This document shows, piece by piece, positions 17,538-53,176 of a stretch of DNA of 64,000 bases. The translations under genes and the position numbers were made by a program. Positions within the stretch are counted from its first letter, which is position 1; the number at the start of each line of letters is the position of its first letter. Location: positions 23,498,001 through 23,562,000 of the forward strand of contig CM069162.1 in assembly GCA_035221665.1 (NCBI GenBank), given 5' to 3'. This DNA is from Okamejei kenojei. Lineage: Eukaryota. Under the pieces are notes generated by a model. The model did no database searches. It was given only the letters and a program-made list of their open reading frames with translations, and was not told the DNA's origin.

Positions 17538-18030
17538 TGCCGGGCCGGCTACAACCTCGCCGCTGCCCCTTCACAGCCCCATTCACTCTGTGCCCGCACC
17601 CAGTGTGATGTTAATGCGGCTCGTTGGGGCTTCCTCGCCCATTCACAACCCGACCCACCCTTTGTGCCTCTAATCAAACTCGAGTGGCGTAAACAAGCTC
17701 CGACCGGGAGAGTCCATCGAGCTTGTGTTTGGTCTCCACTTTGTGTCAAAGGCCTGACGCGTGGCAACCCGCTCCCGTTCCCCACTCGCCACTTTCCTCG
17801 CGGTGTCCAGTGGATCGGTGGCGAGATGCAGCCGCGTAGATTGCGCGTCCGGGGTGGCGACTTGTGGTGGTCGTGGCCGCGGGGTTGGGGGCTCTGGGGA
17901 GGCGTTGCTGCGATTTTCCTCGCTGCGAGGCCCCGACCGCGCTGGTGGCTGTTGTCAGGGAACTGGGTCACATTTAATATGGGCAACTGGGCCCCCGCCG
18001 ATTCGCTCCGGATCATCAAATTGCTCCTTT
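17538..18030 (+). repeat. Locus-specific non-coding module A, copy 1 (5'-truncated, most diverged)
   Basis: High identity to 22071-22710, 32431-33104 and the reverse complement of 52498-53176. Confidence 0.95.
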
Positions 18031-18324
18031 CAGAAAAAAAAAGATTTTTACGCGGCGTAGAAAACATTCCCTGTGGTTATACTATTGGTATATGTGTGTC
18101 TGTGTCTGAGTGAGTGAGTGTGTATGTCTGATAAATCAGTGTCACTTCATCCGAAATAAAAAGTTATCGGATGTTTTCGGATTATTCGGCAGGAGGCGTG
18201 TGACAGCGGGTTGGTGGATCCTCTGCTTTTATATATTTTTATTTCCTTATTCAATCCTGGCTGGTGACCGGAGCCTCCGCACTCAACGCTCCCTGCTGTA
18301 GAGGTCCGACCATCAATGTCTTCC

Positions 18325-18482
18325 ATGCTTTCCTTTCTCATCTTTAAGACGCATCTTCAAGCCTCTTTCTTTGACCAAACCTTGGGCCATCTCCCAATGT
18401 GACTCGCTGTCCATTGCATTTTGTTAGACGTTTCCTCTGGGGCCCATGTTGGGGTATAAAGGCGCTATATAAAGGCACGGTT
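18325..18482 (+). mobile_element. Old L2-type LINE 3' tail
   Basis: ctttaagacgcatcttcaagcctctttctttgaccaaacc...taaaggcgctatataaaggca resembles the chondrichthyan L2/Deu-SINE tail. Confidence 0.6.
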
Positions 18483-18805
18483 GCGTTCTTCTTCCACTGG
18501 CTGCAACCTCGGGATATATGGATCTGTAATCTCTCCACACTCTAGATGCACCAGCATGTAAAAACTCCCAATGCGAAGCGGCGGGAAGCGTGACAGGGAA
18601 ACGTGCCATCAGATACCCGCTGGTCTGTCAACAAAGAAACTTGCTAATTTAAACAAGGCCATATAAAGGTGCCAGGGAAGAGGAGGTTTATTATTATCTT
18701 CACAGATAAAAACATGTTCTAGTTTGAAAATATTGAAGAGGCTATTGAATAATACACACATACACACATATATATATATTCAATTATATATATATAATAT
18801 ATTCA

Positions 18806-19019
18806 NNNNNNNNNNNNNNNNNNNNNNNNNNNNNNNNNNNNNNNNNNNNNNNNNNNNNNNNNNNNNNNNNNNNNNNNNNNNNNNNNNNNNNNNNNNNNNN
18901 NNNNNNNNNNNNNNNNNNNNNNNNNNNNNNNNNNNNNNNNNNNNNNNNNNNNNNNNNNNNNNNNNNNNNNNNNNNNNNNNNNNNNNNNNNNNNNNNNNNN
19001 NNNNNNNNNNNNNNNNNNN
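18806..19019. other. Assembly gap inside a (TA/CA)n microsatellite
   Basis: 214 N flanked by TA-rich repeats. Confidence 1.
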
Positions 19020-19830
19020 ATATATACGTTTATATACACACATATATACACACATATACTTACTATACATACATTCCTGCTCTTCGGAGACGCTGCCTGT
19101 CCCGCTGAGAGTTACTCCAGCATTTTGTGTCTACATTCGATTTAAACCAGCATCTGCAGTTCTTTCCTATACATATCTACATACACATATATAAACATAC
19201 CTACATTATTTACACATTATTTCCTAAAAACCTCAACCAACCAGTGCAATGAACTGAGGATCCCCCCCCGCCCCCTTGGCCAACTGATTTGTTACAAAAT
19301 AGACACAAAATGCTGGAGTAACTCAGAGGTCAGGCAGCATCTCAGGAGAAGAAGCATGGTTGACGTGTTTCGGGTCCGAATCATCCTTCAGACTCTTTGT
19401 ACAAAGTCACAATTTTCAGAATGAGAAGTCTCCAAGTTAACTGATTGGGAAATGTACACGAGCAGAGTGTCAGTAGCTCTGTGCAGCAACGCACGCTCTT
19501 CGTACGTAGATAGTCCCCACATAGCAAGGTCAGAGAACCCAAGGCATGTTGGCTTATGGAGACCGACGTTCGAATAGAATAGGAATAGTAATACAATTCT
19601 ATTAGTAATAGTAATAGGAATGGAGCATTGTCACATGTGACTCGGCGCAGTGAGATTCTTTGCCTGCATACACAATGTATACAGATAGCAGCCACCTACG
19701 GCGCTGACAACGTTAGCGGCAGCCTGACAAACTGTCGCATTGCCTGAAAGAAGAGTCATCGCTTGTTCACCGTGTGATGGAGGGAGCTGCTTGATGGTGT
19801 AAAGTGGGAAGGCCGGAGAGAGCTGGAGAC

Positions 19831-20046
19831 CGCTGTGAGATTTCCGAGCAGAAAATTGTGATTGTGTCAGGACATGGAGATGATTAGCACGGCGCTGGCT
19901 TTGAGGGTGGAGCATGAAATGGATTTGAATTTACTACAGAGCGAGAAATGAGCGTTGAATAGCATCCCCACTATGACACTGGGCGCCAGCCCCGACCGCC
20001 CTGACACCCGCACACACTCAGCGCCAACAATTTCTCGCTTCATTTT
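19831..20046 (+). repeat. Non-coding module B, copy 1 (diverged)
   Basis: gctgtgagatt...gaaaattgtgattgtgtcaggacatggagatgattagcacgg...gccaacaatttctcgcttcatttt, also at 25819, 40031 and (reverse) 50817. Confidence 0.95.
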
Positions 20047-22070
20047 TGTTGTGTTGTTTGTTATTGATGGGAATGAATCGACAAGTAGGACGTGGTCGCA
20101 CTTGGCATTCGCATGGAATGAGAGGATATCTCACTCCTCCGGCTATTCATGCGGACCGTGGCGGATCTCAAGCAAAAGCCCATTTACTACCCTCGGTTGT
20201 ATACTCTTTAAAGCCTTACAACATAATATTAAATTCATCATTTCCTTTCTCCTGTTGACCAGACACCCCCCCCCCAGCATAGACTCAACATAACGGAGAT
20301 CATTCCATTTCCTCTGGGCTGTGTGCGTGGTATTTATGTGTCTTATCCCGAGTGACCGAGTTTCACGTTGAGTTAAGTTATTTTATTATTGTCACGTGTA
20401 CCGAGGTACAGTGAAAAGCTGTTTACCTGCTATTGTCAAAGAAAACACTGTACATGAACGAAACGTATACGCCATCCAACGGTGCACAGGTGGAGATGAA
20501 GGATAAAGGGGACCACATATAGTGCAAAGATAAAACATTGAATTGCAATAAAATTCGACCAAAAAAGGTTTAAAAGGTCGCCAATGAGGTAGATGGGAGA
20601 TAGCCACAAAGAGCCGGATTAACTCAGCGGGACAGGCAGCATCTCTGGACAGAAGGAAGGAATGGGTGACGTTTCGGGTCGAGACCCTTCTTCATGTAGA
20701 TGGGAAGTCAGGAGCGCACTCTAACCGATGAGGTGCTACGGTTCAGGGGGAAACTCAGCGGGTGAGGCAGCATCTATGGAGCGAAGTCCCAGACTAAAGA
20801 AGGGTCTCGAACCGAAACGTCACCCATTCCTTCGCTCCATAGATGCGGAGTTTCTCCAGCATTGTTGACTTCTTTCCATTGTCCCAGCATCTGGAGTTCC
20901 TTCTTAAACCGGTTCTACGGTTAAGGTTATGTCTTTGTTATGGACTTCCTCCAAACCAGAATTACCATTTCTCCACCTACTCTCCCAGATCCAGAAAGAT
21001 TCCGAAACATCAGTCAGCATCCTGTTCTTTATTTACTAAAAGGGTAGACCACGTAACCTTAACCGTAAGAGAGGGGAAAAAAAGGCATCGTTTTGATGGA
21101 CAGTTTAGCCACTCGAGTATTGTTGATGTAACATTGGGAACAATTACCAGCGAGTGTACCAATGTGCAGTGTACATGGAGACCGAGAGGCAGCCAAGACT
21201 TCGATTCTCAAGGAGAACGTGGCCGGTTACTGGAGCGCACCGGTTAAAGTAAAATCGGAGGCAGTCAGTGTCCCTCGTAACAGTAAAGGCCACAGTGCCC
21301 CGAACACCACTTGACGGTCCTAACAGGAAATAGCTGCAGGAGGCGGCCATTCGGCCCTTCGAGCCAGCACCGCCATTCATTGCGATCATGGCTGATCGTC
21401 CCCTATCAATAACCCGTGCCTGCCTTCTCCCCATATCCATTGATTCCACTAGATCCTAGAGCTCCATCTAACTCTCTCTTAAATCCATCCAGTGATTTGG
21501 CCTAACCTAACGTCTAACCTACAGACCGAGACATGCGAAGCGGATGGATCTAGCTGAGAACCAACACCTCCAGGTTCCAGAGCAGCTTCTTCTCGCCAAC
21601 AATAAGCTCTAGAACACTGCACAGCACTAGCCCCAGCAACTCTGACCCTCCGCGGAATGTGTCTTTGCTTGCTCTATGGACTGCGGCGTTGTGCTATTAT
21701 GATTGTCTAGAATTACTGTTATTCGCTTGTTGTATTATTGATCATTATGTATTTATAATGTGTGTTATTATGTTCACGGCCCTGCAAAGCTGCAGCAAGT
21801 AACAATTTCATAATTCCACTGTCGGTTACATGTGACAATTAAACAATCTTGACTCTTGACGGCACGTTATGAGCCGAATGGCAGGAACAGCAGGAACTTC
21901 TATCACCCTATCATTCTATACACGTTGAACAAGGGCTGCGGTCGCCAACTCACTCCCGTGTGTTAGGTGTACAACTGGGAAACTGCACCAAGTTTCACCA
22001 TACATGCGAATCTTTGAATCTAACACATTTCCAATTCTCCAACGATTTATTTTCGATTTTGATCCCAATT

Positions 22071-22710
22071 TTGCTCGTTATCTTTAATCTCCTGGGCCAG
22101 ATGTTGGCCACATCAGCCCACAACAACCCAGGGCAGCTCATGTTTAAGAATGGAGGCCGCTCGCTTGATTTTAACTGCGCCTGGCTCCAAGACAATGAAG
22201 TGTTTGTGCCGGGCCGGCTACAACCTCGCCGCTGCCCCTTCACAGCCCCTTTCACTCTGCGCCCGCACCCAGTGTGATGTTAATGCGGCTCGTTGGGGCT
22301 TCCTCGCCCATTCACAACCCGACCCACCCTTTGTGCCTCTAATCAAACTCGAGTGACTTAAACAAGCTCCGGGAGAGTCCATCGAGCTTGTGTTTGGTCT
22401 CCACTTTGTGTCAAAGGCCTGACGCGTGGCAACCCGCTCCCGTTCCCCACTCGCCACTTTCCTCGCGGTGTCCAGTGGATCGGTGGCGAGATGCAGCCGC
22501 GTAGATTGCGCGTCCCGGGTGGCGACTTGTGGTGGTCGAGGCCGCGGGGTTGGGGGCTGTGGGAGCTCAATGGCACGGAGGCGTTGCTGCGATTTTCCTC
22601 GCTGCGAGGCGCCGTCCGCGCTGGAGGCTGTTGTCAGGGAACTGGGTCACATTTAATATGGGCAACTGGGCCCCGCCGATTCGCTCCGGATCAGCAAATT
22701 GCTCCTTTTG
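22071..22710 (+). repeat. Non-coding module A, copy 2
   Basis: Near-identical to the other A copies; private 14-bp insertion near 22563. Confidence 0.95.
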
Positions 22711-25426: not shown

Positions 25427-25619
25427 NNNNNNNNNNNNNNNNNNNNNNNNNNNNNNNNNNNNNNNNNNNNNNNNNNNNNNNNNNNNNNNNNNNNNNNNNN
25501 NNNNNNNNNNNNNNNNNNNNNNNNNNNNNNNNNNNNNNNNNNNNNNNNNNNNNNNNNNNNNNNNNNNNNNNNNNNNNNNNNNNNNNNNNNNNNNNNNNNN
25601 NNNNNNNNNNNNNNNNNNN
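25427..25619. other. Assembly gap
   Basis: 193 N. Confidence 1.
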
Positions 25620-25635
25620 CTTTTACAGGGAATAC

Positions 25636-26768
25636 AGATTTAAAATACTTTTTAAACTGCCCGGACCAGAAAGCGAGCGATGCGGGTCCAGGCCAGGGTG
25701 AGTCACTCAAATTAGGCCAACCTCATTATTAGAACGTGTCCAACCTAACTCGATACAACACCAAAACGCGTCCCCAATGAGGAGCGGGGACTTATGCCGG
25801 CTGTTGCCGGGCGGGAGACGCTGTGAGATTCCTGAGCAGAAAATTGTGATTGTGTCAGGACATGGAGATGATTAGCACGGCGCTGGCTTTGAGCGCGGAG
25901 CGTGAAACGGATTTGCCATTTACTACAGAGCGAGAAATGAGCGTTGAATAGCGTCCCCACTATGACACTGGGCGCCAGCCCCGACCGCCCTGACACCCGC
26001 ACACACTCAGCGCCAACAATTTCTCGCTTCATTTTCCGCGGCGGGAGGGTCACCGCCGCCCAAGATGCGGATCCTGACGATGCGTCTCATTTGTCGGCGC
26101 GGAACCAGAAACTGATCAAAGTTACACACACTGTGTATCTGACTGGAGACGGGCGGCGCTTTGTAGGGAGCAACATTCCGCGCTTGTTTTATGGAATCTT
26201 TGCCTCTCGTGATGCACCTCCTTCAGCGTGGAAACAGGCCCTTCGGCCCAACTTGTCCACACCGCCCAGCATGTCCCAGCTACATCAGTGACATCGACCA
26301 GCGTTGGCCCATATCCCTCTAAACATGTCCTTTCCACGAACGTGTCTAAATGTTTCATAAACATTGCAATAGATCTTAAACGCCTCAACTACCTCCTCTG
26401 GCAGCTCGTTCCACACACCCACCACCCTTTGTGTGAAAAAGTTACCCCACAGATTCCTATAAATCTTCTCCACTTCTAAAAGTATTTGCAAAAGTTCATG
26501 CACCAAGGATTATCACCAATTTCCTTTTTTTTAGTAATATTATGGGTTTTGAATCAATTTTTTTTTAAATCGGATTTCTTTCCGCCTCTAACGGTAGGGA
26601 CAGAATCTCCCGTTGTCTTTGATCAGTTGGTGTTCAGTTAATAATTGGTTATGACCTGCTCGTTTTTTGTTTTTTTTTGCTGGGCGTTGATTAATGAAGA
26701 AGAATCCTTTCAACGGCCTGAAGGAAGGAACACTTAATGCAAAGAGTTGACCAACTGACCATTGGCCG
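25636..26768 (+). repeat. Left arm of ~1.15-kb inverted duplication (includes module B copy 2 at 25819-26035)
   Basis: Reverse complement of 49775-50989; matching translated ORFs in both arms (e.g. 25944-26291 vs 50345-50692). Confidence 0.96.
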
Positions 26769-26984
26769 TGTATCTGACTGGAGACGGGCGGCGCTTTGTA
26801 GGGAGCAACATTCCGCGCTTGGTTTATGGAATCTCTCCACATCCAAGGCGGAGTTTAACAATGTAATCTCCTACGTGTCCGGAAAGACGAACTTTATGGC
26901 TGCAAACTCAGACTCAATCCGCCCCCAACCCGAAGCTTAATCAAAAAGCCGAAACACCAAATGTTCTAGGAGCAGAATTAGGAC

Positions 26985-30400: not shown

Positions 30401-32430
30401 GCGAGCGTGGGCTTGTCAGTTTCACTGTGAGACCCTGTCAATTACAAGGAGATCCTTCTGATCAGAGCTCGGGTCTCATTTGTCTGCCAAATGACTAACA
30501 GGACCCTCTTTAAAATGAACTGGAGAGGTCAGGATGGAGGGAGACTTGGGGTTAGGTTGAGTGAGGGACAGGATAAAATAAAATATAACCGAGCTTTATC
30601 TGAGCAGTAACAGTATCGGAGGAAGCAACCAAATGATCCTCTCTCGAAACTATCTATACCGTATCTGGGCTGGCTTTTAATGAAGTATTGTTTCAATTTA
30701 GACATAAATAAATAAAACCATTTATCCGACTTTATTTTTGGTTGGAAAATCCCCAAACTGCACTCGATGTACTAATACCCGGCTCCAACAACCTCGTTTA
30801 AGGAGCAGAGTCCCACTGTGACGCGGTCTTGTGCCTCTTCCTGGCCCAAACTTCCTAGGAAGATCTAGAATTTACCGTAAACACATTCCAACTCAGTACC
30901 AGGAACTGTTGCCGTCTGCACGTGGGATAGAAACCGCCAATACGGGTTTAAATCAGAGCCCATGGCAAGATTTATATTTTAAAATCAATATTAAAAGTAG
31001 ATTACCTGGGTATAATGTCTATTTTTTTCTGGGAGAGCAACACGGCTTTGGGACGCCGTGATGTATTTCAATGCCTTCAATGGACATGACTTCCTTTCCC
31101 ATCACTGGACACGTACAATATCCTACGTAACCCCGGAGTTGATATTTCACCATCTTGCCTTAGCATCTTTTCACCTGATCTCCCCCTGTTTCCTAAAGGC
31201 ACGCTATCTATTCCTCCCCGTTCCTCTTCCGTCCCCACAAAGAAACATAAAGAGTTGCCCACATATAAAAATCAGCTTCGAATTCAACGCATGCTACCCC
31301 ACTTAGATGGGGACATCTTGGCGTAAGCAAGGACGAGTTGTGCCGAAGGGCCTGTTTCCGTGCTGTATGAATCTGGTCAAACTCCAGGACTATGGCAACA
31401 CTGACAGTGGAGTAAACACGAAAACCAATAACTCGGGCAACTTTCCACTTTAGTGAGAGCAGCGACAAAGAACATCCTCCACAAATGAACGAACGCCGGG
31501 TGAAAGTATTCGCAAATCACCTCCCTTTGGTTTTAAATTGCAAGGTGATTGCCCGATATCACCTTGTCGATAAAGTAAGTAAGTAAGTTTACTGGCCAAG
31601 TATTCACATACAAGGAATTTGCCCTGGTGCTCCGCCAGGTAACAACATGACATACAGTGACAGTTACGAATGACTCAGAAAACACTAAACATTAATAATA
31701 ATAAAACATTAATGATAAAACACCATTGATCAAGCATTGATAAATCTAAACAAAATCCCGATGCAGATACGTGTTAAATCGTGGCCAAGAACTAAAATCA
31801 TTGCGTTATAAATCACAGCATCGCGCAGAATTATGCCATTCGGCCCATCAAGCCTACTCCGCCATTCAATCATGACTGATCCATCTGTCTCCCTCAACCC
31901 CATTCTCCTGCCTTCTCCCCATAATACTGACGCCCACATTCAACCTGCTTTACTGTTCCCCTCTTCCATCCCAATCACACCATGACATCGCCACCCGTTA
32001 CCCTTCAGATATTCCTCTCCAGAGGAAAGCCTGAGCAACCTTTCCTCCTGGTCTAACGCCTACGCCAGCACCGCTTTCTCATTCTTATCATACGCAGAGA
32101 CTAACTCTGGAGTAACTCAGATAGTCACACAGCATCTCTGGTGAAAAGGAATAGGCGATGTTTCGGGTCGAGAATCCTTCTTCAGACAAAATGCTGGAGT
32201 AAATCAGTGGGGCAGGCGGCATCAGACTGAAGAAGGGTCTCGACCCGAAACGTTACCTATTCCTTTTCTCCAGAGATGCTGTCTGATCGGCTGAGGTTTA
32301 TGTGTCTATCCTCGGTTTAAACTAGCATCTGCAGTTCCTTCCTTCACAAGATCATATTGTTCCTCATTTAAACAATATTTTGGAGGGATTCAGAGATGGG
32401 ACATCTCAACCAGAGTCCGCGGCCGGAAAT

Positions 32431-36895: not shown

Positions 36896-36942
36896 TCTGC
36901 CAGTTTTTTCCCCACTCACAGAGAGCATACCGATCCAGGTTT

Positions 36943-39660: not shown

Positions 39661-40030
39661 AACTCAGCGGGTCAGGCAGCATCTGTGGAGAAAAGAGATC
39701 TCCAGAGGTGCTGCCCGACCCGCTGAGTTGCTCCAACATTTTGCTGAATTTGCTGAGTCAGCCGAGCTTTTTGTGTCCAGATTCGGAGTAAACCAGCATC
39801 TGCAGTTCTCCATCCTCGCCTTTGTTAATAGCAATGGCCTCGCGCATTCATTAAATGCCCTGGAACTTTGCGATACCACCATCCATTCGCGTTCAGGCAT
39901 TTCGCCAGACAAGGGGTGGGGGGGGGGGGGGGTACATAAACGCACAAACCTGCGCCAGCGGTGCAGCTTCAAGGAGCAGTGCTAAGTGTTTTCAAACAGC
40001 GAGAGCTGCTGCCGGGTGGCGGGGGGGCAA

Positions 40031-40375
40031 TGTGAGATTCCTGAGCAGAAAATTGTGATTGTGTCAGGACATGGAGATGATTAGCACGGCGCTGGCTTTG
40101 AGCGCGGAGCGTGAAACGGATTTGCCATTTACTACAGAGCGAGAAATGAGCGTTGAATAGCGTCCCCACTATGACACTGGGCGCCAGCCCCGACCGCCCT
40201 GACACCCGCACACACTCAGCGCCAACAATTTCTCGCTTCATTTTCCGCGGCGGGAGGGTCACCGCCGCCCAAGATGCGGATCCTGACGATGCGTCTCATT
40301 TGTCGGCGCGGAACCAGAAACTGAAGTATCTGTGACTGGAGACGGGCGGCGCTTTGGAGGGAGCAACATTCCGCG
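40031..40375 (+). repeat. Non-coding module B, copy 3 (with shared 3' extension)
   Basis: Matches B2/B4 through gaaccagaaactga, then gactggagacgggcggcgcttt...caacattccgcg. Confidence 0.95.
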
Positions 40376-43084
40376 AGGGCGGTGAATCTGTGGATTATTT
40401 GCCACAGAGGCTGTGGAGGTCAAGCCAATGGATATTTTTAATGCAGAGATAGATAGATTCTTGATTAGTACCCGTATCAGGGGTTATGGGGAGAAGGCAT
40501 GAGATTGGGGTTGAGAGGAAATGATAATGGACAATAGATAATAGACAATGGCCAAAGGTGCAGGAGGAGGCCATTCGACCCTTCGAGCCAGCACCGCCAT
40601 TCAATGTGATCATGGCTGATCATCCCCAATCAGTACCTCGTTCCTGCCTTCTCCCCATATCCCCCTGACTCCGCTATCTTTAAGAGCCCTATCCAGCTCT
40701 CTAGATAGATCAGCCATGATTGAATGGCGGAATAGACTTGACGGGCCGAGTGGCCTAATTCCGCTCCTATCACTTATGAACATGTAATACAATTATGCCA
40801 CATGCAAGAGTTGAGGTTAAGAATGTAAACTCATAAATGTCCGGGAAACAAATACTATGGTCGCAAGTTTGTACACCCCCCCCCCCCCCACCCCGCAGAA
40901 CCCGAGGCTTGATCAAGAAGCCCCAACCTAATCCGAGGAGGGGTCCCGACCCGTAGCGCCGCCTGTGCACGTCCTCCACAGATGCCGCCTGGCCCACTGC
41001 GCTCCTCCAGCACTTTGTGTTTCACTCCAGAACCCACTGTTCGGCTGTAAGAATATGGAACAGTACTCCCATTCACTTCTTTATTTTATGTTCTTTATCT
41101 CTCTCTATCTTTTTTCTTATTCAAAATGTAAATGTATAAATATAATATTTAGTCATTACGAATGTATGTAAGAAGTATTTTCGGGCAAACTAATAAAAAT
41201 ATTCATCAAAAAAAAAAACCCAAAAGAATATGGCACATGTGAGCGGCCCAGAACAGGCCCTTCGACCCACAATCTGTGCGCCCAAATAATCCAGGGGCCA
41301 ACTCTCATCTGCCTGCACGCAATCAACATTCCTCCTCCATTCCCGGAATTACCACGTGTTAATCCAAAAAAGTCTTACAAATGCCACCATCGCCACCCCT
41401 AGCAGTGCGGGCCGGGCACTCGCCGTTTTCTTTGTGAAAAAAAAAAACGTGCCCAGTACACCTCCTTTAAACATTGCCCCATCTCGCCCAATAGCTATGT
41501 CCTCTAGTATTTGATATTTCCAACATCGGAACACGGTTCTATACCTCTCATAACTTTATATGCTTCCATTAGAACCCCCCCCCCCCCCCCTCAACCTCCA
41601 AATCTATCCATCCTCTCCCTGTAGCCCACACTCCCTAATCCAGCCGTATTCTGGCGAACCTCCACTGTACCATTTCCAAAGCTTCCACATCCTTCCTGGA
41701 TTAGGGCGACAGGAGTTTCATATAATACTCTGAGTACAACCGGAATAATACGACCATCGTGAGATTGGTGCTGTTGTTGTATTGAGATCCCTTTGATCTT
41801 GTGATGACTGCGGTGAGCGGAGAGGAACCAAGGATTGGCGATTAATGACTATTATCGTGTCAATGATTAACCGGACTAACCAATTAACCGCACTCACCAA
41901 TTATTCGCCTTCAGACAGTTTATGGAATGACACAATTGCCCAACAGGGGTGCCCACGATCAATGCATTACAAAGGCTATTGGTGTTTTGTTCGTGTTATT
42001 GTTCCCACCTGACCCCGAACATTAAATGTAACATAATGTGAGTCAACTGACGCTAGAATCCTGCCCAATCATCGCCCTTTATGTGGAGGACACTTAATGC
42101 AGACAAAGACCCGCCCAAGAAAATAACACGCCCATCCGGTGAAACACAGTGGCCCCAGAGAATATCGATTACAAAGTCATATATCGGCATGAATTGTGAA
42201 GAAGAGCCTCGACCCGAAACGTCACCCATTCCTTCTTTCCAGAGATGCTGCCGGTCCCGCTGGGTACTCCAGTTATTTGTGTTTATCTTCCATATACAGA
42301 CATGTTACTCTGTGTTAGCTCAGCTTCTCATCTACAACCATTGTCATGTTATCGCCCCCCCCACCCCCCCCCCCCCCCCACCACCCGAACACGCAGTATT
42401 TGACATCAGCTACCGTGGTTATCTGGAACTTGGGGCGTTTTCTATTGTGGCCACTGGGCCAATGGCATTCGAAAGAGTGAAAAAATATATTTTCCGGACT
42501 CACCAAAGGCGATGCAACTTTCTGTAAGCCACCTTCAATTCCGCGGCTCTCTCCCGAAACGTATCCATGTGTCCCGGGAAACCCATGAAATACTTGGCAA
42601 CGTTGGAAGGGCGGTGCGCGCAGACGTTACTGGCAGTCAATGCGGGCAATGTCTCCTGGCACAACCGTGTCCCCGGGAGTGGAGCTATTATGGCCCCTCT
42701 TCCGGGGGTTCTCTCATATGTGCTGGTTGAACATTTGGATTCCGTTTCACATGTCTTCAGTTGAAAGCAGCATCTGCAGTTCCTTCCTACAGATCCTAGT
42801 TTGACTGTGCCCCCTGATTCATTTTTATTCGTTATGCCCCGTTGTCACCTTCCCCAGCTAACAATAATCTATTCTATATTTTCCTTGATCTCGTTCCCTT
42901 TGATCTCTCGTTTTCACACCTCATCCCTTCCATACCTCTGCCTCCCTCTCCCCTGACTAAGGAAGGGTCTCGACCCGAAACGTCACCCATTCCCCTCCAG
43001 AGATGCTGCCTGTCCCGCTGAGTTACTCCAGCGTTTTATGTCTATTCCCACTATCACTTTGCCCCGGTTTCTCCCCACATTGGT

Positions 43085-43880
43085 GGAAATGTGTCAGACT
43101 CGATAACAATCAGCACGGGAGCACCTCAAGGCTGTGTGCTCAGCCCCCTGCTGTACTCACTCTATACTCATGACTGCGTAGCCGGTCATAGTGCGAACTC
43201 CATCATCAAGTTCGCTGACGACACCACTGTTGTGGGATGTATCACTGATGGGGATGAGTCGGAGTACAGAAGAGAGATCGAGCGACTGTCCATATGGTGC
43301 CAGCACAATAACCTGGTCATCAACACCAGGGAACTGATGGTGGACTTTGGAAGGAGTAGGATGGGGACCCATAGTCCTGTTTATATCAACGGGTCGATAC
43401 TTGAAATGGTCAAGAGCTTCAAATTCCTGGGCGTGCACATCTCTGAAGATCTTTCCTTGTCCGAGAAACACAGATGCAATTATTAACAAAGCTCATCAAT
43501 GCCTCTACTTCCTGCGAAGATTACGGAGAGAGTCGGTCTGTAAAGGAGGACTCTCTCTAACTTCTACAGGTGCACAGTAGAGAGCTTGCTGACGGTTGCA
43601 TCGTGGCTTGGTTCGGCAAGCTGAGCGCCCTGGAGAGGAAAAGACTACAAAAAGTAGTAAACACTGCCCAGTCCATCATCGGCTCTGACCTTCCTTCCAT
43701 CGAGGGGATCTACCACAGTCGCTGCCTCAAAAGGCTGGCAGCATCATCAAGGACCCACACCACCCTGGCCACACACTCATCTCCCTGCTACCTTCAGGTA
43801 GAAGGTACAGGAGCCTGAGAACTGCAACGACCCGGTTCAGGAATAGCTACTTCCCCACAGCCATCAGGCTATTAAACCTG
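43085..43880 (+). mobile_element. Rex1/Babar-type LINE RT fragment
   Basis: STGAPQGCVLSPLLYSLYTHDC...IIKFADDTTVVG...FKFLGVHISEDLS; frameshifted continuation KAHQCLYFLRRLR. Confidence 0.88.
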
Positions 43881-44629
43881 GCTCGGACAAAACTCTGAAC
43901 ATTAATACCCCTCCATCTGTTATTTGCACTTTATTAATTTATTAATTAATGTGTGTATTTAAGTATATAACTGTAGTCAATGCCTACTATGTTCTGCTGT
44001 GCTATGCAAAGAAAGAATTTCGTTGTCCTGTCAGCTCTTTTGACTCTTTGACATCCCAAAGGCGTGCTGATTGTGAGTGGATTGGCCGCTGGTAATTACC
44101 CCGATTGCAGGCACACGGTGAATAGCCCCGAGAGCTAGCAGAGATGCGATGGAACAAACCGTTTAGTACATGTCGCGTGAAGCACACGAACAGGGCATTG
44201 GGGCAAATCATTTCCCCTGGTTCTTTGAAAGAAAAACCCAATTGAAGTCTATACCTCATCCCTGTTCCTCCGCACTGAATCTCCAATTTTCATTTTCAAG
44301 GCGGTATTCGTCAAATTTTATTTTGAGAATTCATACGAAATGTTTAACAAAATCACAGTGAAAATGTTTTGCTAGCATTAAGGTATGCAAATAAATAGTC
44401 ACCCATAACATTTTTCAGAGTATCCGCGCCAGGATACACCCTTTGTTCTCCCACCTCCCCATTTGTCCTCAACATGTTTTCATGTGGATATGTGGGGAAT
44501 GAGGGGCAGTGAATAATGTGCAGGCAGATTAGATGTGTACTCGGTATCGTGTTCAGCACAGGCATTGCGGAACGAAGGGCCTGTTCCGGTGCTGTGTTTT
44601 TCTATTTAAGAAGTGCTGGAAAATTGGAA

Positions 44630-44835
44630 GGTAGACAAAAGTGCTGGAGAAACTCAGCGGGTGCGGCAGCATCTATGGAGCGAAGGAAATAGGCAACGTT
44701 TCGGGCCGAAACCCTTTAGGGTTTCGGCCCGAAACGTTACCTATTTCCTTCGGGTTTCGGCCCGAAACGTTGCCCATTTCCTTCGCTCCATAGATCCTGC
44801 TGCACCCGCTGAGTTTCTCCAGCACTTTTGTCTGC
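44630..44835. repeat. Palindromic (head-to-head) dimer of the Penelope terminal repeat
   Basis: gacaaaagtgctggagaaactcagcgggtgc...gcacccgctgagtttctccagcacttttgtc; TSD-like ctgtg(t/c)ttttctat at 44592-44605 and 44836-44849. Confidence 0.85.
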
Positions 44836-45794
44836 CTGTGCTTTTCTATGTTGTTAGCACAGACACCAACTTAGCCGCCCCGCAAACTGAAACCCATCAT
44901 CTCCAATCCACCCCAGCGAAGGGTGTGCTTTTAGAGCATATATTATCTCTCTCTCTCGATCTCTTTCTCTATCTCCCCCCCCCCCCCCCCTCCCTCTCTC
45001 TCTCTCTCAGGCACGCAAACACACATTTTTGAGCCTTATTCCTGGGAGTTTGTTTATGTACCAAAAGGGACTGACAGCAGAAAAGTCGTGGGACGAGTAT
45101 AAATCTTCAACGTGCTGCGATCCAAATGACGGCCAAATCTGCCGCCAATCTACACTCTGGTTATTTCAATCTCGATAGTGATGTTGCGACTTCAAGTGCT
45201 CCCAGTTAACGTGGTGATCAAAAAGAATGTTTTCACTGAGTTTCACCTGGGTTGAGTCCGACTAGGCAACGATGGCGAGGTCGATGGCGCGGTTCTTCGT
45301 TTTTCGTGTAAGAAAACGCACTGTTTCTAAATTATCTTTCGCATTTTCTCGCTAAAAGATGCAGGGGTGCCAGGTGAATTTTAGCAAGTTAAGTCCCCGT
45401 GTTCATTAAACACACGGACTTATTAGCACTAATACGATAACTATCTGATTTTAAAGTCACCACCTGTAGCCAGATTATTAGTGGAGGTCGGTGGGTTACT
45501 AACACTGTGTCCTCTGATCGTGGAGAATATTAAATCGCCCAAGTTACCGGAGGAACTCAGCGGCTCAGGCAGCAAATGTGGAGGGAATGGACTGAGGCCG
45601 TTTCGGGTCGCGATCCTTCTTCAGTCTGTCCATTCCCTCCAGAGATGCTGCCTGACCCGCTGAGTTCCTCCAGAACTTCGTGTTTTGCTCAAGATTCCAG
45701 CATCTACCTGGTTTCCAAAAAAACTTTTGGAAAGATTAGGATGTTAAGATAGGAGGGATACAAAAGGCTTGAGACGGAATCTAAACAAACATCC

Positions 45795-46013: not shown

Positions 46014-46441
46014 CTACCAGGGCCGCCACAGCGGTTCCAAGTCAGGGGAGGCTACGCGGTTGGCGGGGGATTTAGTTTGGGCAGCGACAGGCGCGGCGCC
46101 CTGCTTTTGTGCGGGGATCTCCGGGCTGGAGTTTTCAGTCGAAGCGATGTCAGCTCCTTGTTGCCGGCTGCTGTGTCGAAGCGCGGGGGCACACAGCTCG
46201 CCTTGGGGCTGGCCCGCCGGATTGACCAGGAGCCGGCCTTCGGTTCGGCTGCCGCCGTCCACCGCGCCGAAGCCGGAGCCCGAAAAGACGGGGAAAGCGG
46301 TGACCAGGTGGTTGAGTACCCCCAGCCGCAGATGCTCCTCTGTGGCCTTGCTCCGCAGCAGGTACTGGCTGACTGCGTTCAGGCAGCTCCTGAATCCCGC
46401 CTGGTACTGCGCCACTCCGTCTCTGGACATCCGCACCGCCC
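46014..46441 (-). CDS. HES3: HES3/her3 last exon (Orange domain and WRPW)
   Basis: gtttag|GG GCG GTG...; QYQAGFRSCLNAVSQYLL...VLNHL (Orange domain); ends LWRPW-TAG (Groucho/TLE-binding motif). Confidence 0.93.
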
Positions 46442-46766
46442 CTAAACACACACACACACACACAGTCAGTGCCACCGCGCCAACACCTCCACTTATATCC
46501 TAGGCACATAACACGTCCCAACTTCAGAAGATGGACACAAGATGCGGGAGTAACTCATCGGGTCAGACAGCGTTCTCTCTTCCCTCCTCTTCTGGAGAAA
46601 AGGGATCGGTGACCGTTCGAAGACTTCTCCAGAGATGCTGCCTGTCCCGCTGAGTCACCCCAGCTTTTTCTATCTATCTTCGGTCTAAACCAGCATCTGC
46701 AGTTCCTTCCTCCACCAACACCTGGGGTGGTCTTAGATCCCCCCCCCCCCCCCCCCCCCCCCCCCC

Positions 46767-46801
<35 letters not shown>

Positions 46802-47299
46802 ACGATTTAACCACGTCCGCTCACAGGAAAGTTGAACATCCCAGATACATTAACACTCCTCCTGAATTCCTGAAATAATCTCTTCAAATGCAGGTTCTTC
46901 TGTTGGAACCATTCGGCCCAACTGCTCAATACTCTCCCCATTACTCCGCCACCCCAGCCCCCCGCTGACCATTTCATTCCCTCCCCTCTGTGTGGGGGAG
47001 GGGGGAGGGGGGATGGGTACATAATTCCCATATCTTCCCGCAAAAAAATAACCTTTAAATAACCCTTCTTCCCCGCCGCCAACCGCAGCGCAACTTAGAT
47101 TCCCGGTCAATTGGTGCGCGCTATATGATGAGGAAGGGAGGGAGGGGGCGGGATCAGCTCCTTAGTCAAAGGAGAGATTTTATTAAATTAGTCAGTAATA
47201 AACAGTATTCACTCCGCGGGAATCACAACGCCTGATAATTGCTGACAGCGCGTTTGTATTCGGAAATATCAAGCATTTCCCTGTATTGGCAGGAACTGG

Positions 47300-47319
47300 A
47301 ATCTCTCTCTCTGTCTCTG

Positions 47320-47373
<54 letters not shown>

Positions 47374-47513
47374 ACCCATTCTCGTTACACTCTCTCACAT
47401 TCCCTCACTCTCACATACCCTCACTCACTCTCATACTTTCTCGCTCTCTCTCAAACATACTATCTCACTCTCACACTATCTCTCACGCTATCTCACACGC
47501 TCACACTATCTCT
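47300..47513. repeat. (CT)n/(CTGTCT)n microsatellite in HES3 intron 3
   Basis: Directly visible, runs into a gap. Confidence 0.9.
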
Positions 47514-47876
47514 NNNNNNNNNNNNNNNNNNNNNNNNNNNNNNNNNNNNNNNNNNNNNNNNNNNNNNNNNNNNNNNNNNNNNNNNNNNNNNNNNNNNNNN
47601 NNNNNNNNNNNNNNNNNNNNNNNNNNNNNNNNNNNNNNNNNNNNNNNNNNNNNNNNNNNNNNNNNNNNNNNNNNNNNNNNNNNNNNNNNNNNNNNNNNNN
47701 NNNNNNNNNNNNNNNNNNNNNNNNNNNNNNNNNNNNNNNNNNNNNNNNNNNNNNNNNNNNNNNNNNNNNNNNNNNNNNNNNNNNNNNNNNNNNNNNNNNN
47801 NNNNNNNNNNNNNNNNNNNNNNNNNNNNNNNNNNNNNNNNNNNNNNNNNNNNNNNNNNNNNNNNNNNNNNNNNNNN
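47514..47876. other. Assembly gap within HES3 intron 3
   Basis: 363 N. Confidence 1.
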
Positions 47877-48378
47877 GTTATGTTGTATGATTAAAGGAAT
47901 CCGGGAACCAAGAGTGGGAAATGGAAGCGATGCAAATCTCACTGGACGATGGCCCAGATATTCTCTCATCTGCCTCTGCACCTGTTGGCAAAGCAGCAGC
48001 GAATGGAGGTCGCGTTAAAAGCAGAGAATCTCGTCTCAATATCAGTTTAGGACGAGTGGAGGGAATTATTGAATATGTGGGGAGGAGTTGTGTGATTTTC
48101 ACACGGAGGCTGATCGAGGCGTGGAACTCGCGCCTGACAGTGTTATGTGGCAGTGGGACCGGCATCGCGATGAATGTACACCGCGAGAGCCGGGTCCGGG
48201 GCCATAGATTTCCTCCAGGAAGGCAGGATGAATCCGGGCAGCCTCTTCTCGCTCTGCCGTGAATTTTCTTTACTCCCATGCAAAGAACCATTCACCCACC
48301 CCTCTCCTCCGACGCACAACTGGCCGTATACACCGCCAACACATCCCACCACCACCAACCCGCCCTGATAACACTCAC

Positions 48379-48460
48379 CCTGTCGAGAACTCTGCAAATC
48401 CCTCAGATGTTTCACTGTTAATTCCAGGATGTCGGCCTTTTCAAGTTTGCGTTTCCTAAT
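48379..48460 (-). CDS. HES3: HES3 exon 3 (loop and helix 2)
   Basis: cacag|ATT AGG AAA...CAG G|gtgagt; IRKRKLEKADILELTVKHLRDLQSSRQG; IRKRKLEKADILEL is HES3/her3-typical. Confidence 0.95.
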
Positions 48461-48550
48461 CTGTGGCGTAAAAACGCGAAGGGGACAAATGAGAGGGGCA
48501 AGGTACAGAGAAGGGAAGCACCCAAGGAAACAAACTTAACACAAAACACT

Positions 48551-48953
48551 GGCGGCACGGCGGCGCAGCGGTACAACTGCTGCCTTAGCGCCAGAGATCC
48601 GGGATCGATCCTGAATAAGGGTCTGGACCCGAAACGTCACACCCCTTCTCTCCAGAGAATCTGCCTGTCCCGCTGATTTACTCCGGCTTTTTGTGTCTAT
48701 CTTCCGACTACGGGTGCTGTCTGTACGGAGTTTGTACGTTCTCCCCGTGACCTGCATGGGTTTTACTCCAATATTTTTTCCGATATCCTCCCACACTCCA
48801 AAGACTTGGAGGTTAATTACCTTGATGTAAATGTAACTTGTCCCTAGTGTGTGTAGGGTGGTGCTGGTGTGCGGGGATCGCTGGTCGGTGCGGACTCGGT
48901 GGGCCGAAGGGCCTGTTTCCGCGCTGTATCTCTAAACTAAACTAAACTAAACT
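48551..48953 (+). mobile_element. V-domain SINE (HE1-like) with an inserted Penelope mini-element, in HES3 intron 2
   Basis: ggcggcacggcggcgcagcgg head, ggagtttgtacgttctccccgtgac V-domain, (ctaaa)n tail; Penelope unit at about 48612-48704. Confidence 0.85.
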
Positions 48954-49019
48954 GAAGGAAACACTTGGGCAGAGTTGGCGCGGCGGCGGGAGGGGACGTT
49001 GGCAGGTTTGGGTCCTCAC

Positions 49020-49115
49020 GTTATTTGAGTAGTGGTCTTCCACCAACGCCTTCAGCTGTTCCAGGCACTCGTTGATCCGGGCCCTTCGCTTTTTCTCCAT
49101 CAGTGGTTTTGAAAT
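49020..49115 (-). CDS. HES3: HES3 exon 2 (basic region and helix 1)
   Basis: ttgcag|ATT TCA AAA...AAT AAC|gtgagg; ISKPLMEKKRRARINECLEQLKALVEDHYSNN, 96 nt, phase 0/0. Confidence 0.95.
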
Positions 49116-49436
49116 CTGCAAACAAGAAACACGTTACTCGCTTTGCACTTTCCCCAGACCAACGCGCCATCAATCCTTCCACTGAAAATTCCCTCCCACA
49201 GATGCTGCCTCGCCCGCTGAGTTTCTCCAGCATTTTTTTTTTTAAATCTCCCTCCAAAATAAGGCCGGAGTAACTAAGTTGGAGTGACTCCAGCTTTTTT
49301 GTATCGCTCTTTGGCATAAACCAGCATTCGCGGTTCCGCCTGTCCCCGCTGAGTTACTCCAGCATTTTGTGCCTATCCGCGGTTCCTCCCGACACACTTC
49401 ATCAATCGGCTGGATTGCAGCAAATCTCGCACCCAC

Positions 49437-49507
49437 CTTCCTGTGGCCGCAGGTTGTGTGGCGACTGGGAGCAAGAACCGCCCCGCCGGCTTGTTGGTAT
49501 TTTTCAT
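49437..49507 (-). CDS. HES3: HES3 exon 1 (reading frame ambiguous as assembled)
   Basis: ATG at 49507; donor AAG|GTGGGT at 49437 gives ...HRK|ISKP in the HES-typical frame, but the ATG is one base out of that frame. Confidence 0.55.
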
Positions 49508-49628: not shown

Positions 49629-49784
49629 TTATAAAGCATCGCCACTTTGCATCTGAATGCAGGGAGTCGCCGCTCCCCGCAGCTGCCCGCGCCCATTGTA
49701 ACGCGACAGAGAGAGAGAGAGAGAGATCCTTTCATCATTATTCCTCCCCACTGGATTTGAAACACGGAGCTGATCGGCCAATGG
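49629..49784 (-). promoter_or_regulatory. HES3 proximal promoter
   Basis: TTTATAA TATA-like box 49629-49635; Sox-Oct-like CATTCAGATGCAAAG 49645-49659; SOX site CATTGT 49694-49699; CCAAT 49778-49782. Confidence 0.65.
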
Positions 49785-50989
49785 TCAGTTGGTCAACTCT
49801 TTGCATTAAGTGTTCCTTCCTTCAGGCCGTTGAAAGGATTCTTCTTCATTAATCAACGCCCAGCAAAAAAAAACAAAAAACGAGCAGGTCATAACCAATT
49901 ATTAACTGAACACCAACTGATCAAAGACAACGGGAGATTCTGTCCCTACCGTTAGAGGCGGAAAGAAATCCGATTTTAAAAAATTGATTCAAAACCCATA
50001 ATATTACTAAAAAAAGGAAATTGGTGATAATCCTTGGTGCATGAACTTTTGCAAATACTTTTAGAAGTGGAGAAGATTTATAGGAATCTGTGGGGTAACT
50101 TTTTCACACAAAGGGTGGTGGGTGTGTGGAACGAGCTGCCAGAGGAGGTAGTTGAGGCGTTTAAGATCTATTGCAATGTTTATGAAACATTTAGACACGT
50201 TCGTGGAAAGGCCATGTTTAGAGGGAGGTACACAAAAAGCTGGAGAAACTCAGCGGGTGCAGCAGCATCTAAGGAGCGAAGGAGATAGGCGACGTTTCGG
50301 GTCGAGACCTTCTTTAGAGGGATATGGGGCAACGCTGGTCGATGTCACTGATGTAGCTGGGACATGCTGGGCGGTGTGGACAAGTAGGGCCGAAGGGCCT
50401 GTTTCCACGCTGAAGGAGGTGCATCACGAGAGGCAAAGATTCCATTAAACAATCGCGGAATGTTGCTCCCTACAAAGCGCCGCCCGTCTCCAGTCAGATA
50501 CACAGTGTGTGTAACTTTGATCAGTTTCTGGTTCCGCGCCGACAAATGAGACGCATCGTCAGGATCCGCATCTTGGGCGGCGGTGACCCTCCCGCCGCGG
50601 AAAATGAAGCGAGAAATTGTTGGCGCTGAGTGTGTGCGGGTGTCAGGGCGGTCGGGGCTGGCGCCCAGTGTCATAGTGGGGACGCTATTCAACGCTCATT
50701 TCTCGCTCTGTAGTAAATGGCAAATCCGTTTCACGCTCCGCGCTCAAAGCCAGCGCCGTGCTAATCATCTCCATGTCCTGACACAATCACAATTTTCTGC
50801 TCAGGAATCTCACAGCGTCTCCCGCCCGGCAACAGCCGGCATAAGTCCCCGCTCCTCATTGGGGACGCGTTTTGGTGTTGGATTGGACACGTTTTAAAAA
50901 TGAGGTTGAACTCATTTGATTGAATCACCCTGGCCCGGACACGCATGGCTCGCCTTCTGGTCCGGGCAGTTTAAAAGTCTTTTAAATCT
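49775..50989 (-). repeat. Right arm of the inverted duplication = HES3 upstream region (includes module B copy 4 at 50601-50817)
   Basis: Reverse complement of 25636-26768 plus one extra 86-bp insertion. Confidence 0.96.
50227..50312 (-). mobile_element. 86-bp Penelope-terminus mini-element with 10-bp TSD
   Basis: TTTAGAGGGA at 50217-50226 and 50313-50322; the paralogous site at 26314-26323 is empty. Confidence 0.92.
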
Positions 50990-51431
50990 AACATACAAAC
51001 AGAATTGTCAATCGAGTATTTAAAAAGCGTGAATCAATTAATGAAAGGTCAAATGCGCAAATATGTCCCAGTCAAGAGCATGCCTGAACGTAGCTTAGAA
51101 CAAGTTTAGTTTAGAAACATACTTCAGTTTAGCCAAGAACATAACTCTATGTGTTCACTCAGTAGCGACTAACGTTAACCACATGTTTTATAAAACACAG
51201 GATTTCATCGGCAGGAAGATGAAGCAACTCCGCCATGATCGGATCATTGGGATTTCCGAAGGCCTTCATGTCTTGTCCACACAATTAGACATTCCTCTGT
51301 TTATGGACTGTTTCGTGCGGGCGCTCTCGCGGGCGGAGAGACGCTTCCATCATCATGCACTGGAGACGAAGACAGACACAACATGTTGGCGTAACTCAGT
51401 GAGTCGGGCAGCATCTCCAGAGAAAAGGAAT

Positions 51432-51467
51432 AGGTGACGTTTCGGGTCGAGACCCTTCATCAGACTG
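51432..51467 (-). ncRNA. Minimal hammerhead ribozyme motif in a Penelope-derived repeat (best-conserved copy seen)
   Basis: Minus strand CUGAUGA-A-GGGU(CUCG)ACCC-GAAA-CGUC; canonical core boxes, 4-bp stem II, palindromic ACGU stem III; stem I is weak. Confidence 0.6.
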
Positions 51468-52091
51468 AAGAAGAGTCTCCACCTGAAAGTCACTTATTCC
51501 CTTTTTTTCCCAGATGCTGCCTGGCGCTCTGAGTTACTCCAGCATTTTGTGTCTATCTTCGAATTAAACCAGCATCTGCAGTTTCTTCCTGTCCGGTGTT
51601 GAAACTGTCCATTCACCTCGCTCCCCCAATAGGTAGAAACTACCTTCTCGGCCAATCCCCATGTTCATTGATCATCTAACAGGCGACGTATCTCGGCTTT
51701 GTGTTGGACCGACTGCCCACAAGATCATAGTGTCCCCCCTCCCCCAGCCTCTGAATGATACCCCAGTCGCCTTCATCTCGCCGGCAAAGGCAGAGGATTA
51801 AAACAAAAATTTGAATTGAAAATTGGATAACGCGTTGAGACAGTTCTCCTGCTCTCTCTCTTGCCATTTTCCACTTTGCAGTTAAATACCGAATTACTCT
51901 CGAGTCTACCAACTAGCAGTGCGCTCCCTTGTACACTCCACCCCTGACCGATGATGCCCAGCGTGCCTCCTTCGCCTTCAGGTGTCTTGAATCTTGAGTA
52001 AAACACAAAATGCTGGAGTCACTCAGCGGGACAGGCGGCATCTCTTGAGAGAAGGTGTTTAAGAAGGAACCGCAGATGCTGGATAATCGAA

Positions 52092-52255
52092 GGTAGACAC
52101 AAGTGCTGGAGAAACTCAGCGGGTGCGGCAGCATCTATGGAGCGAAGGAAATAGGCAACCTTTTCCTTTGGGTTTCGGCCCGAAACGTTGCCTATTTCCT
52201 TCGCTCCATAGATGCTGCCGCACCCGCTGAGTTTCTCCAGCACTATTGTCTACCT
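52092..52255. repeat. Palindromic dimer of the Penelope terminal repeat
   Basis: ggtagacacaagtgctggagaaactcagcgggtgcggcagcatctatggagcgaaggaaataggcaac ... reverse complement ending gtctacc. Confidence 0.85.
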
Positions 52256-52497
52256 CCTCTTGAGAGAAGGAATGGGTAACAAATCAGGTCGAGATCCATC
52301 TCAGGGCACCTAGTATTATACCACTATCCCACAGATGGGTCTCCAGAGATGCTGCCTCTGCCGCCGAGTTACTCCAGCGTTTTGTGTCTATCTTCAGGGC
52401 AAACTAGCATCTATCTACAGTTCCTTTCGACCACACATAGTTGTTTTGAAACGGTTGTCTTCAACTCGCTGGAAGGCGAAAGTGACTCTCGGGCGGT

Positions 52498-53176
52498 CAA
52501 AGAACAGTTTCCCTTCTGGCTCGTTTTTTTTCGCGCAAGAAACCCACAGAACAAAAGGAGCAATTTGCTGAACCGGAGCGAATCGGCGGGGGCCCAGTTG
52601 CTCATATTAGATGTGACCCAGTTCCCTGACAACAGCCTCCAGCGCGGTCGGCGCCTCGCAGCGAGGAAAATCGCAGCAACGCCTCCCCACAGCCCCCAAC
52701 CCCGCGGCCACGACCACCACAAGTCGCCACCCGGGACGCGCAATCTACGCGGCTGCATCTCGCCACCGGTCCACTGGACACCGCGAGGAAAGTGGCGAGT
52801 GGGGAACGGGAGCGGGTTGCCACGCGTCAGGCCTTTGACACAAAGTGGAGACCAAACACAAGCTCGATGGACTCTCCCGGAGCTTGTTTAAGTCACTCGA
52901 GTTTGATTAGAGGCACAAAGGGTGGGTCGGGTTGTGAATGGGCGAGGAAGCCCCAACGAGCCGCATTAACATCACACTGGGTGCGGGCGCAGAGTGAAAG
53001 GGGCTGTGAAGGGGCAGCGGCGAGGTTGTAGCCGGCCCGGCACAAACACTTCATTGTCTTGGAGCCAGGCGCAGTTAAAATCAAGCGAGCGGCCTCCATT
53101 CTTAAACATGAGCTGCCCTGGGTTGTTGTGGGCTGATGTGGCCAACATCTGGCCCAGGAGATTAAAGATAACGAGC
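52498..53176 (-). repeat. Non-coding module A, copy 4 (inverted; ~3 kb upstream of HES3 in its orientation)
   Basis: Reverse complement of A2/A3. Confidence 0.95.

Follow-up and report, generated by a model that had tools for sequence, protein, structure and literature searches.

Duplicated enhancers, inverted near-identical enhancers and the concerted evolution of duplicated regulatory DNA are already known. The age of duplicated enhancers is usually judged from how similar they are, with divergence as the expected outcome. A 64-kb window of the genome of the skate Okamejei kenojei (assembly GCA_035221665.1, contig CM069162.1, positions 23,498,001 to 23,562,000, forward strand; positions below are counted from the first base of the window) carries four copies of a pair of non-coding blocks, called here modules A and B, around a single HES3 gene. 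What is new at this locus is that the copies look old yet homogenised. The best reading of these sequences, to which we would give about an even chance, is that they are duplicated HES3 enhancers evolving in concert.

Several described systems resemble the array in part. The enhancers hs3a and hs3b of the mouse immunoglobulin heavy chain (IgH) 3' regulatory region are inverted duplicates, 97% identical, ~25 kb apart within one regulatory domain (PMC4757795). In the mouse, the DNA between the two enhancers is also an inverted repeat, and function has been demonstrated, whereas the skate array is made of four two-block copies with unrelated spacers, and has a developmental transcription factor gene as putative target. 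Duplication signatures have been reported in 18.3% of the fly sets of shadow enhancers and in 33.9% of those from mouse, often without homology of the flanks (PMC13345019, a preprint). In the text of that study similarity is taken as a sign of recent or intermediate duplication, and the terms 'gene conversion' and 'concerted' do not occur; in the skate, in contrast, an old flank lies beside an identical core. Duplicated mitochondrial control regions of seabirds are non-coding regulatory duplicates evolving in concert, with a short adjacent segment that evolves independently (PMC2820450). These are organellar, occur as two tandem copies and were followed in population samples, whereas the skate copies are nuclear, four in number, found in both orientations and seen in one assembly.

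Zebrafish her3 depends on SoxB1 and Pou5f3 via proximal and distal composite sites (PMC2858445, PMC2865518), and features two gar-conserved upstream blocks, NCR-1 and NCR-2, at -3155..-3032 and -695..-597 (PMC12199784). Deletion of these blocks raised Sox3-driven reporter activity in cells (PMC12199784), and such blocks may therefore repress as well as activate. The region is comparable to that of the skate as it belongs to the same gene, with a Sox-Oct site 11 bp before the TATA box and two blocks at ~-3.1 and ~-0.7 kb (PMC2858445, PMC2865518, PMC12199784). Unlike the skate modules, the zebrafish blocks have been described as single and upstream, and their likeness to A and B is one of position and motif type only. 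In gar, chicken and frog, hes5 clusters beside pank4 also feature a repeated Hes-linked unit adjoining a pantothenate kinase gene (PMC8320183). As described there, they are clusters of genes, whereas the skate has HES3 alone, and repeats with neither coding relics nor an RBPJ-type site. Among the top-ranked matches in the literature covered, where few subscription papers are represented, no account was found of this locus, or of a conversion-maintained multi-copy enhancer array around a single developmental gene.

The order of genes in the window is a pantothenate kinase gene, the array, one HES3 and a synaptobrevin gene. Module A (490–690 bp) and module B (215 bp to 1.1 kb) are each found exactly four times. 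Self-BLAST places A at 17538-18030, 22067-22710 and 32417-33104 on the plus strand and at 53191-52499 on the minus strand (pairwise identity 94.1–97.6%), and B at 19822-20046, 25636-26768 and 40005-40376 on the plus strand and at 50989-49775 on the minus strand (92.0–98.9%). The start points given by the initial annotation for the eight modules fall on these blocks. The length it assigned to B, 215–345 bp, fails for copies 2 and 4, which have ~1.13 kb of B in common, including a repeat-derived piece, in a tract reaching 268 bp before the HES3 ATG. Profile searches of the window retrieved four A, four B and one 67-bp partial duplicate of B, against no A match and one weak B match (E=0.6) in the reversed-sequence control. 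The modules, and the core promoter of HES3, are as follows, tails of B being treated further below.

17538-18030, plus strand: module A, copy 1; without the 135-bp 5' extension of the others, and the most diverged, with 11–13 substitutions per ~476 sites.
19822-20046, plus strand: module B, copy 1; limited to the core, which has 8 substitutions in 213 sites, 4 being CpG-type transitions.
22067-22710, plus strand: module A, copy 2; 5' part like copy 4, 3' part with 7 differences from copies 3 and 4.
25636-26199, plus strand: module B, copy 2; 186-bp 5' extension common to copy 4 only (13 substitutions in 175 sites).
32417-33137, plus strand: module A, copy 3; 3' extension common to copy 4, ending in a ~35–45-bp micro-inversion; one Sox hexamer mutated.
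40005-40375, plus strand: module B, copy 3; homology stops at inserted dispersed-repeat fragments (40375-40784).
49775-50989, minus strand: module B, copy 4; core at 50814-50601 (-1307 to -1094 from the HES3 ATG), plus extensions; 96-bp repeat insertion, absent in copy 2.
52448-53191, minus strand: module A, copy 4; core at 53042-52567 (-3535 to -3060 from the HES3 ATG); Sox-Oct-like site at 52979-52965.
49629-49659, minus strand: HES3 core promoter; Sox-Oct composite site 11 bp before TATAA, once in the window.

The micro-inversion at the common 3' edge of A3 and A4 lies at 33092-33137 and 52448-52493, respectively. In copies 2 and 3, module A has a near-direct repeat of 9–10 bp at its two ends (in copy 2, at 22067-22080 and 22695-22710).

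Within each cassette A precedes B in the same orientation, as had been noted initially; if order and strand of four A and four B modules were random, four co-oriented pairs would occur in 32 of 17920 arrangements. The A-B spacers measure 1791, 2925, 6900 and 1509 bp. Comparison of the six spacer pairs after repeat masking gave only 13–22-bp matches with E>=0.11, or none. The spacers had been described as largely unrelated, and this is correct for the masked A-B spacers, which are unalignable, but copies 2 and 3 share an old segment of 120–130 bp located after B. Shared tracts show a three-way coincidence of their ends at either edge of A, 5' and 3', and at the 5' edge of B. Copy 4 represents the DNA natively located upstream of HES3, with A at -3.7 to -3.0 kb and B at -1.3 to -0.9 kb from the ATG. 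Copies 1–3 sit downstream of the gene, inverted relative to copy 4, at 9.6–32 kb from the HES3 TATA and at 5.6–28 kb from the ATG of the gene upstream of the array. They are promoterless, because the Sox-Oct site of the HES3 promoter has a single occurrence in the window, even when 2 mismatches are allowed, and the longest common tract ends at -268.

The evidence for homogenisation comes first from the old segment, called here flank C.

26837-26955, plus strand: old flank C, copy 2; directly after the copy-2 B region.
40798-40927, plus strand: old flank C, copy 3; differs from copy 2 at 31/118 sites.

Copies 2 and 3 differ at 31/118 sites in flank C and at 0/294 sites in the B core (Fisher p=6e-19). 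Flank C is the top residual match among 132 masked queries (55.4 bits, vs 42.5 in the reversed control), keeps register with the end of B if the repeat insertions of copy 3 are skipped (anchored score 34 vs a null of 0.7), and is found at two places only in a profile search of the window. Divergences of 26% and 0% side by side in one pair exclude a single duplication time. Adjoining segments of one pair of paralogues differ widely in divergence, which is a mark of concerted evolution by interlocus gene conversion, observed here in one pair. A similar signal, between the tail of copy 4 and the DNA downstream of copy 3 (z=15), was discarded as a shared dispersed repeat (anchored test P=0.16).

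A second mark of gene conversion is found in the mosaic relationships along module A and in tracts specific to pairs of copies. When copies 2, 3 and 4 of module A are compared, the 4 events unique to copy 3 all precede the 7 unique to copy 2 (runs test p=0.006, 11 events); one further event, for 12 in all, is unique to copy 4. Sharing is incongruent among pairs, as the 3' extension of A joins copies 3 and 4, the extensions of B copies 2 and 4, and flank C copies 2 and 3. Repeat-derived DNA differs at 3/243 sites between copies 2 and 4, and at 45/238 from another copy of its family. Divergence is layered (26%, 7.4%, 3.8%, 2.3–2.7%, 1.3%, 0.7%, 0.4%, 0%), each copy carries private variants, and the informative sites in the A core (3/3) give the split (1,2 | 3,4). 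Mosaic and layered identities are direct evidence of homogenisation, and support the amplified non-coding, enhancer-like array evolving in concert beside HES3 that had been proposed initially. The similarity is probably caused by recurrent ectopic conversion, limited to islands that are still similar and halted by insertions; this would account for the old flank beside the identical core, the mosaic, the pair-specific tracts and the copied repeat-derived DNA alike.

Purifying selection alone, by which old duplicated enhancers would have stayed near-identical without exchange, like ultraconserved elements, fits the sharp coincident boundaries around motif-bearing, CpG-rich cores, as well as the split supported by all three informative sites. 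Selection may hold a core, but is insufficient by itself, because variants are ordered into blocks (p=0.006) and repeat-derived DNA has been homogenised; tracts also differ from pair to pair. We regard this explanation as very unlikely.

The 3' part of copy 2 has a peculiar structure.

26200-26767, plus strand: tail copied from copy 4; 568 bp, 4 substitutions in 565 aligned sites; includes the repeat-derived piece and ends short of the HES3 promoter.
26768-26834, plus strand: 67-bp direct duplicate of 26133-26199; copy-2 alleles, template-switch-like junction.

The tail is bracketed by the 67-bp direct repeat, both units of which carry two copy-2 alleles that copy 4 lacks. Such a structure would be expected if replication had switched template from copy 2 to copy 4 and then returned to copy 2 at a point 67 bp behind. 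The 96-bp repeat present in copy 4 and not in copy 2 is bounded by a 9-bp direct repeat; either it was gained later by copy 4, or it is missing from copy 2.

The same data may be viewed as a partial artefact of assembly, in which real repeats, more diverged than they now appear, were made uniform during repeat resolution or polishing, and the tail of copy 2 is a second copy-4 allele joined at the wrong place. The window contains three gaps (18806-19019, 25427-25619 and 47514-47876), the former two between A and B in copies 1 and 2; tail and copy 4 differ at an allelic level (4/565 sites and one insertion), the 67-bp duplication could be an unmerged contig overlap, and HES3 exon 1 is shifted by 1 bp. 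Four copies with four sets of flanks, however, exceed two haplotypes, and private variants mark each of them. Both 67-bp units bear the two copy-2 alleles missing from copy 4, and the tract begins 16 bp past the gap, not at the gap. An artefact of this kind is judged quite unlikely.

Regulatory signs were searched for in base composition and in motifs. The window has a G+C content of 45.5%, and includes a wide region in which CpG dinucleotides are retained.

16001-54000, no strand: CpG-retaining domain; encloses all four cassettes and HES3 (38 kb).

In masked DNA sorted into two-kb bins, the observed/expected CpG ratio is 0.57–0.96 in 19/19 bins from 16 to 54 kb, and <=0.47 in 11/13 bins outside; the two outside bins above 0.47 are the promoter bin of the gene upstream of the array and a mostly masked neighbour. 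Repeats of the same family retain CpG more often inside the domain (98:13) than outside (23:16; p=2e-4, at sites picked from the same copies tested), the difference being significant in 2 of 3 families. Germline-hypomethylated domains are typical of developmental regulators. CpG retention across the array and HES3 suggests that the two lie in one such domain. The edges of the CpG domain are sharp, and repeats are richer at 12–46 kb, where 29% of the DNA is masked, than in the flanks (9–11%). Imperfect inverted repeats of 135–220 bp, outside common families, are found at 15733-15912, 53849-54069 and 59583-59717; two are near the edges of the CpG domain.

A Sox-Oct-like site is unchanged in all A copies, and the four copies represent the only 1-mismatch matches to a Sox-Oct consensus in the window, where 0.27 are expected; this consensus was picked post hoc, with the sequence already in view, and the four copies count as one match. 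Strict Sox-type hexamers number 3 in the B core (0.49 expected, P=0.016) and 2 in the A core (0.65 expected, P=0.16); these P values carry no correction for the 9 motif classes x 5 regions examined. In neither core is TAATC significantly enriched, and RBPJ-type sites are missing in both A and B. SOX/TCF-type and TAATC motifs had been listed initially as features of the modules: the enrichment of Sox hexamers is modest, and that of TAATC is not significant.

Retention of both blocks in all three extra cassettes, while the spacers were replaced, suggests selection. Shadow-enhancer function is plausible, given position, CpG retention and motifs, and the array would then behave as a set of duplicated shadow enhancers under concerted evolution. 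That the blocks were retained by selection, and act as enhancers, with HES3 as their target, is put at slightly less than an even chance; for copy 1 the promoter of the nearby pantothenate kinase gene is a possible alternative target.

Several points weigh against concerted evolution of HES3 enhancers. The argument on age concerns one 120-bp flank in one pair, and the remaining flanks are without signal; the 5' flank of copy 1 is marginal (anchored P=0.5, best-diagonal P=0.012, no profile match). The segment with 7.4% divergence adjoins a gap and may hold errors, the three gaps and the 1-bp shift in HES3 exon 1 make errors possible, and the copy-2 tail could be a mis-joined allele. In one of the three repeat families the CpG contrast is missing (p=0.6), and to this are added the ways, mentioned above, in which the CpG sites and the Sox-Oct pattern were chosen. 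CpG-type decay in B1 (4/8 substitutions, P=0.017) and the mutated Sox hexamer in A3 fit a loss of function.

The last two observations also favour a neutral origin of the similarity, in which copies 1–3 are functionless passengers, copy 4 is the sole enhancer, and conversion from copy 4 keeps the relics similar. Copying of repeat-derived DNA, and the finding that copy 4 is the odd one out in just 1 of the 12 events in A, fit as well. Passengers, however, would hardly be expected to keep both A and B in three extra cassettes with wholly replaced spacers. The three-way coincidence of tract ends looks as if A and B had functional edges, and the CpG domain covers all copies. We consider this explanation unlikely, but not negligible.

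The modules themselves are non-coding, non-promoter DNA. The frameshifting indels cited in the initial annotation are confirmed, as all 6 indel events in A and in the core and 3' extension of B have lengths not divisible by 3 (4, 14, 1, 4, 1, 16). A coding role was rejected: 25 open reading frames (ORFs) were compared to Pfam, and the 14 located in, or overlapping, the modules gave only a weak match to cEGF (E=0.21). A protein search, which took in the A1 ORF and left out the B ORFs, found no homologue of the former among 242 candidates. A structured RNA was likewise rejected, as the window has no match at the Rfam gathering threshold; none of the 14 weak Rfam matches in the 49.4–53.4 kb interval is inside A or the B core. 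The tRNA search found none. One strand of one copy each of A and B folds no better than shuffled sequences (z 0.33 and -0.68, respectively), and the modules are not covered by any tandem repeat. Absence of the core promoter motif from the copies completes the picture.

The identity of A and B as dispersed non-autonomous mobile elements is highly improbable. Fixed ends are found in several copies, A1 is shortened at the 5' end, A-rich stretches follow A1 and A2, and the near-direct repeat of 9–10 bp at both ends of A could be viewed in the same terms. Yet A and B are strictly co-oriented and ordered (32/17920), and within the window neither is seen outside 17–53 kb, whereas true repeats are spread over its whole length. 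For the 14 module ORFs, Pfam gave nothing at E<0.2, and the ORF in A1 has no protein homologue. Neither target site duplications nor terminal inverted repeats were consistent across 12 element definitions. The lack of such features, and of tails, had been claimed at the outset; this is right for the duplications and inverted repeats, but A-rich stretches do follow A1 and A2, and only these.

Repeats of other types are scattered in the window. Copies of an abundant, palindromic short repeat are located at 44629-44837, 52091-52255, 51367-51561, 45541-45678, 32125-32286 and 10919-11152; two of them, within the range searched, gave sub-threshold Rfam matches to plant miRNAs, from their hairpin shape. 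A CR1-like fragment spans 38000-39420; its last 490 bp are 90% identical to 12014-12498, and many small indels indicate that it may be low-quality sequence. Fragments derived from reverse transcriptases of different retroelements are found at 43022-44000 and 33806-34579 (both with Pfam RVT_1) and at 36300-36940 (by eye only).

The only Hes gene identified in the window is HES3.

46014-49507, minus strand: HES3 coding region; exons 49507-49437, 49115-49020, 48460-48379 and 46441-46014; ends with WRPW.

The protein features the Pfam domains HLH and Hairy_orange and the terminal WRPW, and its best match is a named HES3. Exon 4 is 84% identical to HES-3 of Amblyraja radiata, and 45–50% to seven other shark and ray proteins. 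The assignment to HES3 made initially is therefore correct. Exon 1 (49507-49437, minus strand) measures 71 bases, 1 short of the 24 codons of the first exon in Amblyraja. The deficit shifts the frame after residue ~18, and an in-frame Met remains in exon 2; it may reflect an assembly error or the loss of a long isoform. Exons of a Fumble-family pantothenate kinase reside at 1–8 kb on the minus strand; a PDB sequence search with this protein gave no match. The gene is presumably PANK4, a name that we assign from synteny. At the opposite side, the last exons of a synaptobrevin/VAMP gene are found at 56842-57905 on the minus strand (one exon at 57.7–57.9 kb), ~4 kb upstream of module A4.

The cassettes may alternatively be the skeleton of a former Hes gene cluster, in which three of four Hes3 (or Hes5) units lost promoter and coding DNA; this origin, which we hold to be rather improbable, is compatible with a present enhancer function. 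The polarity of the cassettes is as expected upstream of a gene, and the hes5 clusters adjoining pank4 in bony vertebrates include four genes in gar and three in chicken (PMC8320183). In a search with tblastn, eight relatives and a profile, however, only the four HES3 exons scored among 3124 six-frame pieces, and Hes coding motifs or peptides were not seen elsewhere in the window. A relic of the HES3 promoter or exon 1 was not found elsewhere in the window, and no gap lies downstream of any of the B copies. The lack of RBPJ-type sites in A and B counts against Hes5. The elephant shark has one her3-named gene near pank4 (PMC8320183), and 11 named chondrichthyan protein clusters hold one HES3 per species, though clustering at 90% would hide near-identical paralogues. 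The suggestion that further Hes genes are unassembled is not supported and is unlikely, as copies 2 and 3 run into the non-promoter flank C, and neither gaps after B nor relics are found.

A history compatible with these data can be outlined for the preferred reading, duplicated HES3 enhancers evolving in concert. In this scheme, A would be the distal and B the proximal regulatory block upstream of skate HES3. An ancient duplication would have placed an inverted A-B pair 3' of the gene, the promoter being left out or later lost, and the inverted duplicate would then have expanded to three pairs. Spacers would have turned over through repeat insertion and deletion, so that the blocks alone stay alignable. 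Ectopic gene conversion or template switching would have rewritten the blocks again and again, often with the inverted native copy 4 as a partner. Judging from the sequence features described, the likeliest role of the extra pairs, now or in the past, is that of redundant SoxB1/POU-type enhancers of the single HES3 promoter, 10–32 kb away, in a shared low-methylation domain.

We propose, more tentatively, that the array may be a self-synchronising battery, in which three promoterless pairs face the native pair as inverted repeats, and selection and conversion would keep the set as one unit. If so, conversion would spread each new binding-site variant to all copies, duplicated enhancers could not be dated by sequence identity, and the locus would offer a natural setting for asking if identical enhancers contribute dosage or robustness. 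One window combines an identical core lying beside an old flank, a module with mosaic structure and a junction that resembles a template switch, around a single-copy neural repressor gene. Should copies 1–3 prove inert, the array would still be a tidy example of conversion preserving regulatory relics. If confirmed, it would be a clear nuclear case in which enhancers, and not genes, undergo concerted evolution.

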